Below, piece by piece: positions 6,970 to 17,778 of a stretch of 64,000 bases of DNA. The notes below the pieces were generated by a model. That model had not been told where the DNA came from. It did no database searches and was given only the letters and a program-made list of their open reading frames with translations. Source of the DNA: a phage. The stretch lies in NCBI GenBank assembly GCA_024686575.1, contig GCA_024686575.1_4863.1; one strand, given 5' to 3'. The stretch's first letter is position 1. Every line of letters begins with the position of its first letter. Both the position numbers and the translations under genes were made by a program.

Positions 6970-7260
6970 TACGGGCAGTTTATGCGTCCTGCCGAGATCA
7001 AAAAAAATACGACGAACTATTTATATGCGTGGAATTACCCGAGTGCTAGAACACTCGGGTATAATTATTCCAGGCAAATATTCCTGTTATCTCTTGTTGA
7101 GTATTATCTCACCTCCTAGTCCTTTAATGGTACGGGTGGAAGTCTGCGGTTGGCGGGTAACCTCTTGCAGACGTTGTTGAAAAGCGACTTGTTTCAGCTG
7201 TTGCTGACGCAGTTGTTGCATAAAGGTATTCATGTTAACCTCTAGGTGGATGTGAATAAG

Positions 7261-8209: not shown

Positions 8210-8626
8210 TTAGTCCTTAAGAGAGTTAATAAAGTCATCTAAACTAATATCACGGAATGGGAAGTAAACACCTTCAAGCGGGATCGTGTAGTGTTCACTA
8301 ATGGCACGTTGCCAATCCAGAACAGTTGCGGGGTAGTTCACAACCTCAAAGTTAGGATGCGTAATTGGCGGAATTGCGTTGTAAACATAGCCGTTGATAT
8401 TTTTCGATGGGAACGCTGCACGGAACTTCGGCTCCATGTAGAACATTTCCTCTTTTACTTCCTGGCCTTCCCAGAAACGATAACCGCCCTTACCGTCAGG
8501 AATATAAATCGCCTTGTCACGGGGTATAGGGGAATCCTTGGATAGCGGAACAAATCGTCCGTACTGGTCAAGAACCATCCAGTCGGTGTCATTCTTTAAA
8601 TACTTTTGGAGCTTCTCATTAATCAT
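8210..8626 (-). CDS. hypothetical protein
   Basis: 138-aa ORF packed 2 nt downstream of the previous gene. Confidence 0.5.
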   Translation of the reverse strand: MINEKLQKYLKNDTDWMVLDQYGRFVPLSKDSPIPRDKAIYIPDGKGGYRFWEGQEVKEEMFYMEPKFRAAFPSKNINGYVYNAIPPITHPNFEVVNYPATVLDWQRAISEHYTIPLEGVYFPFRDISLDDFINSLKD

Positions 8627-8685
8627 TTTTCACGTTCCTTAGGCAAAAAATAATACCACCCGTAGGTGGTATTAAATTATCTATA

Positions 8686-8874
8686 CTACTTCTTCCCGAG
8701 TTCCCCACGGAACTTCGCCAGCTCTTCTTTCCAGTCCGGCTTCGGTAGTGCGCTTTTCGGCCCCACGATAAATGTGCGTTCTGAGGTTTGTGGATTCACC
8801 TCTACTGTTTCGTTATCTTCCACTTCACGAAGCATGATTCCGTTTTTACCATCGTAATTAACTAAAACGCCCAT
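8686..8874 (-). CDS. hypothetical small protein
   Basis: 62-aa ORF; its start overlaps the stop of the upstream small gene. Confidence 0.35.
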   Translation of the reverse strand: MGVLVNYDGKNGIMLREVEDNETVEVNPQTSERTFIVGPKSALPKPDWKEELAKFRGELGKK

Positions 8875-9056
8875 TAGTAAATCTCCTGCTGCATTGGAAA
8901 TACATTACCTGTCGGTGAGACAAGTAAAACTTGCGCGGTAACGTGAACGATTTCTTCTTCGTCCTGACGACGAACACCGTTAGTGAGATTATCCCACTCA
9001 CGTTTAAAACGCGGGTGAGATAAGAACTCGGCAAACTCCGTATCAGAAAAGTCCAT
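8874..9056 (-). CDS. hypothetical small protein
   Basis: Internal ATG at 9054-9056 overlaps the TAA of the upstream small membrane-protein gene (TAATG coupling); the track ORF 8874..9074 starts further upstream. Confidence 0.35.
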   Translation of the reverse strand: MDFSDTEFAEFLSHPRFKREWDNLTNGVRRQDEEEIVHVTAQVLLVSPTGNVFPMQQEIY

Positions 9057-9199
9057 TAGCCGCGACCTGTACACATGGCAACAGAGTTACCGTTATCGAT
9101 GCACTTGTTGTAATCTTGAGTTACAGTGATGGACAGTACCGCGAAAGCAACAACAGCAACGATGGCAAAGATGGCACGTTTATGGTTACGAGTTAACAT
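9056..9199 (-). CDS. small hydrophobic (single-pass membrane) protein, 47 aa
   Basis: Not in the track (<60 aa). ATG at 9197-9199 preceded by AAGGAG at 7-nt spacing; translation MLTRNHKRAIFAIVAVVAFAVLSITVTQDYNKCIDNGNSVAMCTGRG has a clear hydrophobic helix; 26-mer motif about 50 nt upstream. Confidence 0.45.
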   Translation of the reverse strand: MLTRNHKRAIFAIVAVVAFAVLSITVTQDYNKCIDNGNSVAMCTGRG

Positions 9200-9250
9200 G
9201 GCAATACTCCTTTAGATTAATAGTCGATTGAGTTGATAGATTGTCTTCTA

Positions 9251-9276
9251 TCACCTAGGTAATATATATCTGAAAT
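9251..9276 (-). promoter_or_regulatory. conserved 26-mer TCACCTAGGTAATATATATCTGAAAT, copy 1
   Basis: Identical 26-mer also at 17753-17778; shares the TAATAT..TATCT core with the 15-mer; upstream of the small membrane-protein gene. Confidence 0.5.
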
Positions 9277-9295
9277 TATTTTTATTCAGAGTACA

Positions 9296-9347
9296 CCCTC
9301 TATAACGCTCTCAAACGCGTTTTGAGAGCTTTTATCACTATAGAGGG
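9296..9347. repeat. nested near-perfect palindrome (operator- or origin-like)
   Basis: Outer arms CCCTCTATA / TATAGAGGG and inner arms GCTCTCAAA / TTTGAGAGC around a CGCG centre, in a roughly 240-bp noncoding region. Confidence 0.5.
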
Positions 9348-9397
9348 CGTTCTACCGTTAGAGTGGCTTTAGAAGGTTGTGAGTGCGTTTAGAGGGC
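9341..9397. repeat. short direct repeats TTAGAG(G/T)G, four copies (iteron-like)
   Basis: TATAGAGGG, GTTAGAGTGG, TTTAGAAGG, GTTTAGAGGG spaced 12-19 nt, next to the palindrome. Confidence 0.35.
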
Positions 9398-9432
9398 TAA
9401 AATAAAGAGACCTGGTCTCACAAGGAGACCAG
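9396..9432 (-). terminator. rho-independent terminator
   Basis: Hairpin CCTGGTCTC-ACAAG-GAGACCAGG followed on the minus strand by a T-rich tract; downstream of the stop at 9441. Confidence 0.55.
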
Positions 9433-9440
9433 GCACACAT

Positions 9441-10238
9441 TTACATCAAATCCAGGCTCTGTGAGACCGCAACTTCCGGTTCACTGATACCGCTGGTCAC
9501 TGACAATGTAAAGCGACGATCGTTAATCACTTCAACTGCTTCGCTCGCACGCAGTGAATACTTGTCGGCGATTGGCAGTACACTGTTATCGTTCTGCGGC
9601 GGCAGAATCTGTGCCGGGAACGGAATGTACGAGTTGAAAGTGATATACGGACCGACCTGCATCATCGGGAACACTTCGTTCACGTTATTTGACATCCCTT
9701 CATCCGAAGAGATAACGGAGTGACGCAGACAGGCACGCAGGCCAACGGTGTACTCCGGATCGCGCGATTCGCCGATCAGTGCGAAACGGAACACATTGAA
9801 ATCGTAGTCGTCTGCAGCGAAGTGTTCTGGCAGGATACGCTGTACGTATTCAGGGTAAGTGGTCACGTCACCCGGAATAACATTCACGGCGAGTTTCTGT
9901 GCCAGGAAATACGCATTCGCGAAACCATACTGACCCGCCAGCGCGGCTGAAATCGGTGCAGTGGTTACGCAGTGCAGGAACAAGTGATAACCCAGCCCGC
10001 CTTTATCTTCGATTGCCAGGTCCTTCTTACTCTGCACACCGTCAGCAGTATAAATAACTGCCACTGTCTTATCCAACGTCGACGCCATGACAAAATCCAA
10101 CTGCACCTCACCGCTCTGCGGTAGTACCTTAACCAGACGATCCCAGAGCTTGGTCGGTTTGGTGAAGTTAGCGGCTTCGTACGCATCAATGTCGAGAACA
10201 GTTTGGCCGGTCATGCGAAAGGTGTGAATCGCTTTCAT
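9441..10238 (-). CDS. hypothetical protein
   Basis: 265-aa ORF; terminator hairpin 9411-9432 just downstream. Confidence 0.55.
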   Translation of the reverse strand: MKAIHTFRMTGQTVLDIDAYEAANFTKPTKLWDRLVKVLPQSGEVQLDFVMASTLDKTVAVIYTADGVQSKKDLAIEDKGGLGYHLFLHCVTTAPISAALAGQYGFANAYFLAQKLAVNVIPGDVTTYPEYVQRILPEHFAADDYDFNVFRFALIGESRDPEYTVGLRACLRHSVISSDEGMSNNVNEVFPMMQVGPYITFNSYIPFPAQILPPQNDNSVLPIADKYSLRASEAVEVINDRRFTLSVTSGISEPEVAVSQSLDLM

Positions 10239-10281
10239 TGCAATATTTTCCTTAAGGTTACTTACGGGTCATACTAGATGA

Positions 10282-11595
10282 CTAAGCTGTAAATTTTTCA
10301 TCTTTGAGCCAAAGACTCAGTTGTGATTGGGTGTTATAGCGTCCTGATGCCATCGTTTGACCATCGACAGCGGACTGGAACACTTCACCCACCAACGTGC
10401 CGTAGCGGGTATAGACCCCATACTCGTTGGCAAAAACGTATTTTACTGGCATACCGGGATATAGGATGCCGTGCGTTGAACGGTTCCAGGTTGTTTGCAC
10501 AATCGTACCCAGACCCATCTCCAGTTTAGACCGCTGCGGTTTATCGGTATCACTAAAGTGTTTATCAGGATCGATTGGTGCGTTAACCACGCCGCCTGGA
10601 TACGCAGCAGGGTCGGCCTGCGCCACAAACTTATCAGGTGTGGTCATACTGATGTCGCCAGGCGTAAATGAACTACTACGCCCATCCAACACACGTACAG
10701 ACCCTACCCTGTAACCCGTACCGTGGTTAAGCGCGGCCTGGTCACGGTATTCCAAACTACTGGTGTCGCCGCCACAAATCAGATAGATAACATTACCCGC
10801 GATATCGGTGGTGCGGTCAATGTGAGCAGCCTGTTCACGAGGCAGATTATAGATGACCAGTTTAGGCTTCGTTGTGTTATTAAACTTCAACGAGTCCCAG
10901 GGCCGATACAGATACCAGCGCTGCAAGTATTGGAAGACCCCAATACCTTTGCTGTAAACACCGTAATGGTTCTGCAGATAATCAAACACGCTTAAGAAGT
11001 CTTCGGAGTCCGGTATAACGATATCACGATATGCCTGCTGTTCTTCCTCGTCGTATTCAATTCCTTTCAACTGCCCCTCTGCAGCCACCCCGTCCGGCAA
11101 CGTATCCGCCAGTATCGAGCGTGCCACTGTTAACCCATCGGTTTCGTGGTAGATACCGCCCACTTGACGGTTACGCAGGAACCACATCGACTCATCCATC
11201 AGCTCCAATGTTACCAAAGCGATAGATTTCTCATCAGACTGACTCAAGAACATCGTCGGTGTTTCCGCGTTGTGGTCGCGGTTATTTATCACGATGCCGC
11301 GGTAGTTAAAGACCCCCGCGATTTTCTGTCCACGACGCAATAACAGCTTTACCTTCAAATCCCCTTCTGCGGACGATGTGATCATTCGCATGTGGCTGTA
11401 GGGTATAGCCAAGGTGAGATGTGTCAATAAACAGATATCGCGCGTAAAGTGACCCGTGTGGATGATAGACAGCATCTTCAACACCGTCACTGGGGCACCG
11501 TGCACCGTGAGGAATATCCCGTAGTCGATAGCCGGTAACCCCCGAGCATTAGCGATGTGACCGTTCGCCATCTGTTGTAACCGACCAAACGACAT
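10282..11595 (-). CDS. hypothetical protein
   Basis: 437-aa ORF, overlaps the stop of the upstream gene at 11595. Confidence 0.55.
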   Translation of the reverse strand: MSFGRLQQMANGHIANARGLPAIDYGIFLTVHGAPVTVLKMLSIIHTGHFTRDICLLTHLTLAIPYSHMRMITSSAEGDLKVKLLLRRGQKIAGVFNYRGIVINNRDHNAETPTMFLSQSDEKSIALVTLELMDESMWFLRNRQVGGIYHETDGLTVARSILADTLPDGVAAEGQLKGIEYDEEEQQAYRDIVIPDSEDFLSVFDYLQNHYGVYSKGIGVFQYLQRWYLYRPWDSLKFNNTTKPKLVIYNLPREQAAHIDRTTDIAGNVIYLICGGDTSSLEYRDQAALNHGTGYRVGSVRVLDGRSSSFTPGDISMTTPDKFVAQADPAAYPGGVVNAPIDPDKHFSDTDKPQRSKLEMGLGTIVQTTWNRSTHGILYPGMPVKYVFANEYGVYTRYGTLVGEVFQSAVDGQTMASGRYNTQSQLSLWLKDEKFTA

Positions 11596-17752: not shown

Positions 17753-17778
17753 TCACCTAGGTAATATATATCTGAAAT
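17753..17778 (-). promoter_or_regulatory. conserved 26-mer TCACCTAGGTAATATATATCTGAAAT, copy 2
   Basis: 43 nt upstream of the start at 17710. Confidence 0.5.

Follow-up and report, generated by a model that had tools for sequence, protein, structure and literature searches.

A conserved three-unit repeat element upstream of a predicted early promoter at an operon boundary of an SPN3US-like jumbo phage

The DNA analysed here is a single stretch of 64,000 nucleotides (the window) from an SPN3US-like jumbo phage (Seoulvirus), and the features of interest lie in a 240-bp gap flanked by genes on the minus strand. A structural-gene operon ends and an early operon begins at this gap. Along the coding (minus) strand, the terminator of the gp201 homologue comes first and is followed by four degenerate units in inverted orientation, a 35-bp element made of three units (hereafter the composite), an A/T tract, an early promoter that we predict below, a 5′ UTR with a Shine-Dalgarno sequence, and the first gene of the early operon (Table 1). 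The first-pass annotation had described the stretch as free of genes, with a 26-mer and a terminator adjoining its repeats, and both statements hold: the longest ORF lying within it has at most 23 aa, and none of the small ORFs was worth considering. The terminator directly follows the stop codon of the gp201 homologue and has a stem of 10 bp with 6 G-C pairs followed by the T-run, which qualifies it as intrinsic, and its hairpin and T-run are kept in the same position in all relatives, Derbicusvirus included. The gp200 homologue belongs to PHROG 8574, whose function is unknown, and searches of Pfam and PHROGs gave no known function or domain for the proteins adjoining the gap. A scan of positions 8800-9800 for sigma-70 promoters found none. 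Also, no Rfam family came near its threshold at this locus or at the T5-like locus described below, the best scores in the window being 14-18 bits against gathering thresholds of 50-86 bits (E of at least 1.8).

Table 1. Features of the gap and of a second promoter copy, in coordinates of the 64-kb window
Feature	Position	Strand	Details
Shine-Dalgarno and first early-operon gene (gp200 homologue, 47 aa)	9056-9212	-	Shine-Dalgarno AAGGAG 9207-9212; ATG 9197-9199
Predicted early promoter for virion RNA polymerase (26-mer)	9251-9276	-	ATTTCAGATATATATTACCTAGGTGA; predicted start G at 9252, by analogy with AR9
35-bp composite, three 10-bp phased units	9293-9329	-	GCTCTCAAAAC / GCGTTTGAGA / GCGTTATAGAGGGTG on coding strand
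52-bp nested palindrome	9296-9347		Outer arms CCCTCTATA 9296-9304 and TATAGAGGG 9339-9347; inner arms GCTCTCAAA 9307-9315 and TTTGAGAGC 9321-9329
Four degenerate units, orientation opposite to composite	9336-9396	+	CACTATAGAGGG 9336-9347; CCGTTAGAGTG 9355-9365; GGCTTTAGAAGG 9365-9376; TGCGTTTAGAGGG 9384-9396
Intrinsic terminator of gp201 homologue (gene 9441-10238)	9399-9434	-	From terminator scan; stem-loop GCCTGGTCTCCTTGTGAGACCAGGT 9410-9434; T-run CTCTTTATTTT 9399-9409
Second exact copy of the 26-mer	17753-17778	-	Directly after terminator, without composite

Within the 26-mer, positions 9259-9268 read TATATATTAC, followed by CTAGGT and then G, which fits the early consensus ATATATATTAT-(6N)-G. 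The early-promoter consensus of phage AR9 is AAATATATATTAT-(6N)-G (PMC5312081), and early promoters of jumbo phages are in general described as about 10 nt of highly conserved AT-rich sequence centred near -10 (PMC7598289; PMC5312081). Like the AR9 and phiKZ early promoters, the 26-mer has ATATATATTAC-(6N)-G, combines an AT-rich sequence with high conservation (all relatives have it), and repeats before operons in gene orientation, often right after a terminator. It may be noted that this likeness covers 9251-9276 alone and takes in neither the palindrome nor the repeats. On this analogy, the 26-mer is a predicted early promoter of the virion RNA polymerase. Our literature search for mapped transcription starts or early-transcript data in SPN3US-like phages found none, and a search for the promoter sequence returned unrelated papers only. 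In SPN3US itself we counted about 7 strict and about 13 variant copies of the early promoter, all in gene orientation on the main coding strand, and the composite accompanies only one of these roughly 20 early-type promoters. The second exact 26-mer in the window, which has no composite, serves as an internal control and shows that the composite does not belong to the promoter in general.

The gap had also been annotated as holding a 52-bp nested palindrome and four TTAGAG(G/T)G direct repeats. The palindrome is real, since both pairs of arms are complementary at 9/9 positions (the inner pair enclosing the loop CGCGT), and its folding energy as single-stranded DNA is -14.3 kcal/mol (z = -5.1), which none of 200 shuffles matched. 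It ranks 64th of 12,789 among 60-nt windows, and those ahead of it are mostly terminators. The direct repeats are likewise present, though they are less regular than described: TTAGAGTG lies at 9358, TTAGAAGG at 9369 and TTAGAGGG at 9389, to which TATAGAGGG at 9339 may be added. When the window was simulated 200 times under a first-order Markov model, clusters of matches to T[TA]AGA[GA][GT]G within 40 nt never exceeded 2, against three in the gap, and both occurrences of TATAGAGGG in the whole 64 kb are in the gap. A search of the window with a single-unit pattern gave no enrichment outside the gap locus. On comparing the two sets of features, units A and B of the composite form the inner palindrome and unit C forms its left outer arm, and the four degenerate units on the plus strand are the annotated iteron-like TTAGAGGG repeats together with the right outer arm. 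Palindrome and iteron-like repeats are both copies of one repeat unit in two orientations, and the palindrome arises because these units stand head-to-head.

The consensus of the composite is CGCTTAGAGA, GCGTTACAGA and GCGTTTTAGAGGGTA (the first unit is also given as aaCGCTTAGAGA), that is, three distinct units in a fixed order around a conserved core, the G/C-containing 8-mer AGAGCGTT. The training set of a family HMM comprised 24 copies, all taken from other loci and elements; the SPN3US-group copies at this syntenic site were excluded. With this model nhmmer matched the window at 9329-9293 on the minus strand (profile positions 2-38, E = 1.1e-7, 27.7 bits), which was the only match with E < 0.1 in the 64 kb, and five shuffled genomes gave a maximum of 10.8 bits. 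The degenerate units matched it only weakly (9342-9358, E = 2.1). An inverted partial copy was nevertheless present 43-63 nt upstream of 9 of 29 other composites, as opposed to 0 of 30 on the downstream side, and the best inverted unit of the window lies 55 nt upstream of its composite. The 240-kb SPN3US genome has exactly two composites, at 65355-65391 and 137546-137581, 72 kb apart. The second has a stop codon on one side and a bidirectional terminator on the other, and no promoter can be recognised after the copy, so that service as a promoter operator cannot be the sole role of the element. No published description of the composite was found in our literature search, and a full-text search for the repeat sequence returned nothing. 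Among binding sites of known regulators, compared by their consensus sequences, none of OmpR, PhoB, PhoP, ArcA, CpxR, Fis, IHF, Lrp, MetJ, MarA/Rob, boxA or the P1 C1 operator fits both the 8-mer and the 10-bp period.

Conservation in related genomes separates the sequence of the repeats from their ability to fold. The syntenic site still carries the composite in Seoulvirus, Erskinevirus (Asesino, phiEaH2), Machinavirus (ChrisDB, L143), Wellingtonvirus and Caitlin, across which the gp201 protein is only 47-58% identical and the remaining spacer cannot be aligned; the composite is absent from the 3 Derbicusvirus genomes examined. That it was kept at one site while its flanks diverged points to selection on the sequence itself. 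The arms of the palindrome fared differently. The inner arms are disrupted in MET_P1 (GTGCTC) and in SPFM2 and SPFM16 (GAGGGC), and the outer arms, which most relatives disrupt, are broken or shifted in SPN3US, SPFM2, SPFM16, MET_P1 and EC001, in every case without compensating changes. Substitutions such as GAGAGC to GAGGGC preserve the unit consensus yet disrupt the hairpin, and in more distant relatives the units stand in tandem without any palindrome. What is conserved in the relatives is the composite at its site; the palindrome as a structure is not. The same changes bear on the reading that the palindrome works as a folded structure, be it an antisense terminator on the plus strand, an RNA hairpin in read-through transcripts of the minus strand or a cruciform in supercoiled DNA. 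The strength of the fold speaks for it, as does the plus-strand sequence GCTCTCAAACGCGTTTTGAGAGC followed by TTTTAT, and the terminator scan does list the inner hairpin with its T-run. Yet the arms are broken without compensation, distant relatives have no palindrome, Rfam has no match, and no plus-strand gene or promoter feeds the hairpin. We therefore regard a structural role as very improbable.

In the relatives that have the composite, the distance from its last unit to the ATATTAC of the early promoter is 42-51 nt and falls into two classes, 42-43 and 51 nt. As these classes are 8-9 bp apart, the composite is only roughly in helical phase with the promoter. The genes downstream of the composite vary between genera, this being a plastic early-gene region, and in SPAsTU and pEa_SNUABM_29 a gene begins 10 nt after the composite and the promoter comes only after that gene.

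The composite is found, with the same order of units, well beyond this group. It is present in the T5-like phage SuperGirl, in Felixounavirus (Felix-O1-like), in Asteriusvirus EJP2, in a 355-kb jumbo-phage contig, in E. coli islands, in plasmid pSYM1 and in more than 40 small ColE2-type plasmids. The SuperGirl copy is identical to the second SPN3US copy at 32 of 34 bases, and as the match includes variable positions it suggests horizontal transfer. Of 31 composites in IMG/VR, 27 lie outside ORFs of at least 70 aa. In elements that rely on sigma-70 the composite lies upstream of promoters: by eye, we placed it about 30 nt before a TAGACA-17-TATAAT promoter in EJP2, about 85 nt before TTGACA-17-TAATAA in an island copy, and upstream of TTGTCA-16-TATAAA in SuperGirl. 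Reading the units themselves as -35 and -10 hexamers, also by eye, gave a plausible promoter only in ColE2-type plasmids and cer, and not in the phages. Six kinds of carrier were compared by all-against-all BLASTP of the genes adjoining the composite, and no protein proved to be shared. We also scanned 185,579 bacterial genomes with a 2.3-unit pattern, for which we estimate that about 35 matches would arise by chance. Of the 93 matches obtained, most came from a repeat of H. pylori or from simple tandem repeats of 10 bp in unrelated phyla, and the enteric reference chromosomes had no match, so that the scan is of little help. By its sequence, the composite belongs to a family spread over unrelated enterobacterial mobile elements.

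Several kinds of known element resemble the composite in part. Upstream curved DNA and activating sequences carry phased A/T tracts at about -40 to -100; the composite lies at about -41 to -77 of the predicted early start in the window (the inverted units at about -84 to -144), has a 10-bp periodicity, and in both SPN3US copies falls at about the 99th percentile of curvature predicted by a wedge model. Its position relative to promoters is comparable in the EJP2, island and T5-like copies. Unlike curved DNA, its sequence conservation far exceeds what curvature alone would need. The accessory sequences of the Xer sites cer and psi offer another likeness. The composite of ColE2-type plasmids is directly followed by GGTACGTACAA-CGGGAG-TTATGGTAAAT, an XerC/XerD core that resembles the cer core GGTGCGTACAA-TTAAGGGA-TTATGGTAAAT, and ColE1 cer has GCGCTGAAC-GCGTTTTAGC beside its core, which we count as a further likeness. 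In such sites an XerC arm, a central region of 6-8 bp and an XerD arm (TTATGKTAAAT) adjoin the accessory sequence. The window differs in that the sequence after the composite reads GGGTGTACTCTGAATAAAAATAATTTCAG, without the XerD arm or an Xer core, and no ARG box was seen in it by eye. Also, ColE1 cer scores just 5.4 bits with the family HMM. Xer accessory sequences act through an oligomeric protein around which the DNA is wrapped (PMC2655662; bioRxiv 10.64898/2026.02.23.706985). Those of cer and psi are bound by PepA with ArgR or ArcA, the box of the latter two being about 100 bp from the core. For PepA there is no usable binding consensus (PMC2409434), and the literature we searched defines no motif and states that it binds no recognisable one, hence PepA binding is not predictable from sequence. 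The PepA-bound carAB control region gave no match to the family HMM. The terminal-repeat regions of T5 are a further comparison, since the T5-like phage has an almost identical composite within its large untranslated repeat region, beside DnaA-like boxes and upstream of the pre-early genes. In a description of T5 the terminal-repeat repeats are a candidate injection stop signal and many repeats and DnaA boxes are named, and its section 3.3, on the repeat region, does not single out the composite (Davison, bioRxiv 10.1101/866236). A difference is that jumbo phages are not known to inject their DNA in two steps.

The first-pass annotation had suggested either a protein-binding operator or an origin of replication or packaging. 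The analysis favours the former, as a prediction that draws on the 10-bp phased units, the conservation over several genera and the position upstream of the early promoter, and it lends no support to the latter, with DnaA boxes, a skew signal and a nearby terminase gene all absent. For replication, the repeats would be iterons of an initiator, with the palindrome and A/T tract aiding unwinding. The locus shares with iterons the clustering of short direct and inverted repeats in non-coding DNA together with a palindrome, a DnaB-like helicase gene lies 2.3 kb away, the composite of the T5-like phage is beside the DnaA-like boxes TGTTGATAA and TTATCCGCA, and plasmid composites are near rep genes or a ColE1-type origin. 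To our knowledge the origins of phiKZ-like phages have not been located, which leaves room for this reading. However, the units are 10 bp long as opposed to the 17-22 bp typical of iterons, and TTWTNCACA occurs in the window only at 7251 and 55103, which puts the nearest DnaA box 1.9 kb away. There is no extended AT-rich unwinding region either, the sole A/T tract being 15 nt at 9272-9286, upstream of the promoter. No initiator gene is linked to the locus, where neighbouring proteins have no known domain. The cumulative GC skew of the whole SPN3US genome has no inflection at 65 kb, although GC and AT skew there just track gene orientation and are uninformative on origins. Other carriers agree poorly with this role too: Derbicusvirus, which must also replicate, has no composite, SPN3US has a second one 72 kb away, and ColE2-type plasmids have theirs at the Xer core upstream of rep, the ColE2 origin lying downstream of rep. 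An origin is therefore quite unlikely. As a packaging (pac) site, the phased repeats would wrap a ring of small terminase and start headful packaging. Small terminases typically bind short repeats in helical phase and bent DNA, and the predicted curvature of the composite is high. But the gene of the terminase large subunit is at 234-236 kb of SPN3US, about 170 kb from the locus at 65 kb, and no small terminase gene was found nearby. Two composites in one genome, none in Derbicusvirus, and the presence of the element in T5-like phages (whose ends are fixed), in plasmids and in islands remote from packaging genes all argue against it, and we give this reading hardly any chance.

A role in recombination was considered as well. 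Here the composite, like the promoter beside it, would mainly be a linker at module boundaries, a brief shared homology that travels with small gene cassettes and promotes their shuffling from one mobile element to another, with no dedicated binding protein. It does lie at the edge of the plastic early-gene region, where downstream genes differ between genera and where a gene has been inserted immediately behind it in SPAsTU and pEa_SNUABM_29. In SPFM2 there is a 28-bp duplication of the promoter, in the SPFM16 record this site is fused to a further copy of the promoter, and the near-identity of the second SPN3US copy with that of the T5-like phage points in the same direction. In ColE2-type plasmids a 91-aa ORF is enclosed, as in a cassette, by two composites that each have an Xer core. 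Against this, 35 bp is short for efficient homologous recombination, homology alone does not explain the 10-bp phasing, the fixed order of units or the inverted partner at about 50 nt, and the element was retained for long at one syntenic site despite diverged flanks. On balance we consider a linker role unlikely.

The reading that we prefer is that the composite acts as DNA, and not as RNA or a cruciform. It would be a helically phased, intrinsically bent platform that is bound or wrapped by an oligomeric DNA-binding protein, and it may modulate the firing of this single early promoter or the local DNA topology where the two operons meet. We lean towards this account taken as a whole, that is, an operon boundary with the composite as a bent platform for protein binding or wrapping upstream of one early promoter. 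As to the binder, host PepA is a candidate and only a lead, named solely because ColE2-type plasmids have the same element beside their XerC/XerD core. SPN3US-like phages probably keep most host proteins out of their DNA compartment, which weakens the version with a host factor. A wider and more tentative proposal, which we consider possible though doubtful, is that the composite is a specific, helically phased docking or wrapping site for one oligomeric protein (a host architectural factor such as PepA, or another) that unrelated enterobacterial phages, islands and plasmids have recruited for the control of promoters and Xer sites once their DNA has entered a cell, and would thus be a previously unrecognised cis element. 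The phages so concerned are jumbo, T5-like and Felix-O1-like, and the islands are satellite-like.

Almost nothing is known about how individual early promoters are regulated in nucleus-forming jumbo phages, and one promoter with a conserved upstream element against about 20 sister promoters without it offers a clean comparison. Phage families with no other DNA in common share this 35-bp element, which E. coli islands also carry and which in small plasmids lies beside Xer cores. If a single factor recognises the composite, many enteric mobile elements would share it as a handle on their early gene expression or DNA topology, and such a factor could supply the missing sequence determinant for the binding of accessory proteins at plasmid Xer sites.

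Over the region 8600-10300, the window shares 98.6% identity with Salmonella phage SPN3US (Seoulvirus, 240 kb) and with some 30 of its close relatives, the minus strand of SPN3US corresponding to the plus strand of the window. All local genes lie on the window minus strand, where a gap (9200-9440) without any credible ORF parts the gp201 homologue from a run of small function-unknown genes. The first-pass annotation had described a gene-free stretch beside a 26-mer and a terminator, holding a nested palindrome and clustered direct repeats, and all of these features were recovered. As ssDNA the palindrome folds at -14.3 kcal/mol (z = -5.1), a value equalled in 0 of 200 shuffles, and it ranks 64th among 12,789 60-nt windows; a cluster of three repeats was absent from 200 simulated windows. 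DnaA-box matches (TTWTNCACA) are depleted over the whole 64 kb (2 against 6.1 +/- 2.3 in shuffles).

Features in and around the gap (window coordinates)
Feature	Position	Strand	Remarks
47-aa gene	9056-9199	minus	first of small-gene run; function unknown
26-mer	9251-9276		second exact copy at 17753-17778
Nested palindrome, 52 bp	9296-9347		two pairs of perfect 9-bp arms
Degenerate opposite-orientation units	9336-9396		four units
Direct repeats	9358, 9369, 9389, plus 9339		TTAGAGTG, TTAGAAGG, TTAGAGGG, plus TATAGAGGG
Terminator	9410-9434		
gp201 homologue	9441-10238	minus	PHROG 8163

Conservation of the palindrome in related genomes, proposed at first pass as a check, was not found. In a comparison of six close relatives including the window, the inner arms are broken in MET_P1, SPFM2 and SPFM16 and the outer arms are broken or shifted in all five other than the window. 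None of the arm-breaking changes is compensated and all stay within the unit consensus; more distant relatives lack the palindrome wholly, and Rfam gave no match. On this comparison, selection does not act on the palindrome. The main finding is a conserved 35-bp, 10-bp-phased composite of three units (A, B and C) beside an early promoter. In the diverged relatives read at the gap (ChrisDB, Asesino, phiEaH2, Caitlin, Wellington and a 239-kb IMG/VR contig), the same site carries tandem 10-bp units on the coding strand, e.g. GCGCTTAGAGA-GCGTCTGAGG-GCGTTATAGAGGG, 42-51 nt ahead of the promoter's ATATTAC; the remaining spacer is unalignable and the adjacent gp201 protein only 47-58% identical. In three Derbicusvirus genomes (CR5, Phobos and EarlPhillipIV) there is no element and the terminator is directly followed by the promoter.

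A family HMM, trained on 24 aligned copies of the composite from other loci and elements with the SPN3US-group site left out, gave a single, full-length match in the window (9329-9293, minus strand, E = 1.1e-7) and exactly two in the SPN3US genome (65355-65391 and 137546-137581), against a background of at most 10.8 bits in five shuffled genomes. All the repeats derive from a single unit, with the 35-bp composite as their core. Unit A has diverged to GCTCTCAAAAC in the SPN3US group and there forms the inner palindrome by pairing with unit B (GCGTTTGAGA), and the opposite-orientation units account for the palindrome's outer arm and the 'iterons'. The only other SPN3US copy, locus 2 (GCTTTTAGAGAGCGTTACAGAGCGTTTTAGAGGG; L008:37546-37581), lies outside the window, between the gp108 stop codon and a bidirectional terminator common to the convergent gene gp107; SPAsTU and phiEaH2 (L012, L013) have degenerate versions of this conserved site. 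A partial inverted copy is present 43-63 nt upstream in 9 of the 29 composites other than the window's, and downstream in 0 of 30. In the window the best HMM-scoring inverted unit lies 11 nt upstream and the best-preserved one (9384-9396) 55 nt upstream. In a wedge-model calculation, the predicted curvature of both SPN3US composites ranks at about the 99th percentile. The inverted-copy pattern and the curvature fit wrapping or looping of the DNA around an oligomeric protein, without proving it.

By its motif, the 26-mer is assigned as an early promoter. It agrees with the early consensus established by experiment for AR9, AAATATATATTAT-(6N)-G (PMC5312081), by analogy with which transcription would start at the G at 9252. 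It also has the character generally ascribed to early promoters of jumbo phages, AT-rich motifs of about 10 nt near -10 that bioinformatic searches can locate (PMC7598289). Its second copy has a terminator before it and a Shine-Dalgarno site and gene after it. SPN3US holds about 7 strict (CAGATATATATTACCTAGGTGAG) and about 13 variant copies of the motif (GAGATAGATATTATCT; also given as GAGATAGATATTATCTnnGTGA), all in gene orientation, and these two sequence classes may be two temporal or strength classes. In SPFM2 (L004:1001-1289) the promoter core AGATATATATTACCTAGGTGATAGAAG occurs twice by a 28-bp tandem duplication, which would place two tandem early promoters at this locus.

Of the initial reading as an operator or a replication or packaging origin, the operator part stays plausible while the origin part is unsupported by layout, skew, copy number or neighbours. 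There are no DnaA boxes nearby and no unwinding element except a 15-nt A/T tract, the GC skew is featureless at this position, the SPN3US genome has two element copies and its terminase about 170 kb from this locus, the element has no linked initiator gene, and Derbicusvirus does without it. The composite may plausibly be the operator of the early promoter, but it stands at only 1 of about 20 early-type promoters, locus 2 is placed between a stop codon and a terminator, and SPAsTU and pEa_SNUABM_29 have a gene beginning 10 nt past the element, the promoter following only after the inserted genes (two in SPAsTU, L005:1031-2165; one in pEa_SNUABM_29, L148:1694-2336). The first inserted gene in both has the ribosome-binding site GGAGG, and one of the SPAsTU genes is annotated 'putative DNA ligase'. 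These three points keep a boundary or recombination-linker role of the composite in play, which also agrees with the differing sets of genes downstream, with the duplicated promoter of SPFM2 and with a promoter-to-promoter junction in the SPFM16 record (233,195 bp; L153:255-495). There the composite is followed by the variant promoter of SPN3US 72487 and its following gene, so that about 7 kb would be missing, a stretch that in SPN3US holds a DnaB-like helicase and the major head protein; the record seems less a viable genome than the result of a collapsed assembly or of a deletion between promoter repeats.

The same element is found in unrelated mobile elements. SPN3US locus 2 shares 32 of 34 bases with a copy in the T5-like phage SuperGirl (Epseptimavirus; L011:2400-3250), placed in an untranslated stretch of about 930 bp that adjoins the pre-early genes A1 and A2 and DnaA-like boxes, the kind of region described as T5 repeat regions by Davison (bioRxiv 10.1101/866236). 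Two DnaA-like boxes, TGTTGATAA and TTATCCGCA, come immediately after this composite, which lies about 60-95 nt upstream of, and inverted to, a TTGTCA-16-TATAAA promoter that points leftward to the pre-early genes. The stretch also has repeated occurrences of the motif GGGTA(C/T)TTGACAAAAT. Short-query BLAST and an IMG/VR pattern scan found the three-unit composite in Felixounavirus, Asteriusvirus EJP2, a 355-kb jumbo contig and other viral contigs, 27 of the 31 IMG/VR copies being outside ORFs of 70 aa or more. Complete E. coli genomes are mostly without the element, and where found it is on plasmids (702 places) or on chromosomal islands. Plasmid pSYM1 has three copies, and over 40 small plasmids of the ColE2 type also carry the composite. 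One island, in E. coli MB49, is satellite-like, is beside tRNA-Gly and has a capsid gene; four perfect tandem GCGTTTTAGA units (L015:3996-4043) lie there within 2.1 kb of non-coding DNA, and the same region occurs in IMG/VR contigs L041, L042, L045 and L048. In EJP2 and the island, good sigma-70 promoters follow the composite at a distance of about 30-85 nt; they were identified, like that of SuperGirl, by eye with no promoter tool. When bacterial species were scanned, each represented by one genome, the matches were mainly due to chance or to simple tandem repeats. Tandem 10-bp arrays with the same 8-mer core in distant phyla (L121, L119, L099, L075, L053, L058), for example GGGCGTTACA in at least six repeats in an Akkermansia MAG, are probably ordinary 10-bp repeats picked out by the search pattern.

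In the ColE2-type plasmids the composite runs straight into an XerC/XerD core (GGTACGTACAA-CGGGAG-TTATGGTAAAT). Plasmid pS19_651-f of this type (L016:972-1460) has, just before its rep gene, a 91-aa ORF between two direct copies of the composite with an XerC/XerD-like core, an arrangement resembling an Xer-bounded cassette; L017:5505-5560 has one copy of this module. In ColE1 cer, whose core sequence was confirmed, two related units (GCGCTGAAC-GCGTTTTAGC) lie against the core, in the part of the accessory DNA that is wrapped around PepA together with ArgR or ArcA (PMC2655662; bioRxiv 10.64898/2026.02.23.706985). PepA is a lead and not a result, since cer scores only 5.4 bits with the family HMM, the carAB control region gives no match to it, PepA has no usable consensus (PMC2409434) and the V. 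cholerae ChIP-seq papers searched report no motif. No published description of the composite was found in the literature; from its distribution, it belongs to a family spread over unrelated enterobacterial mobile elements.
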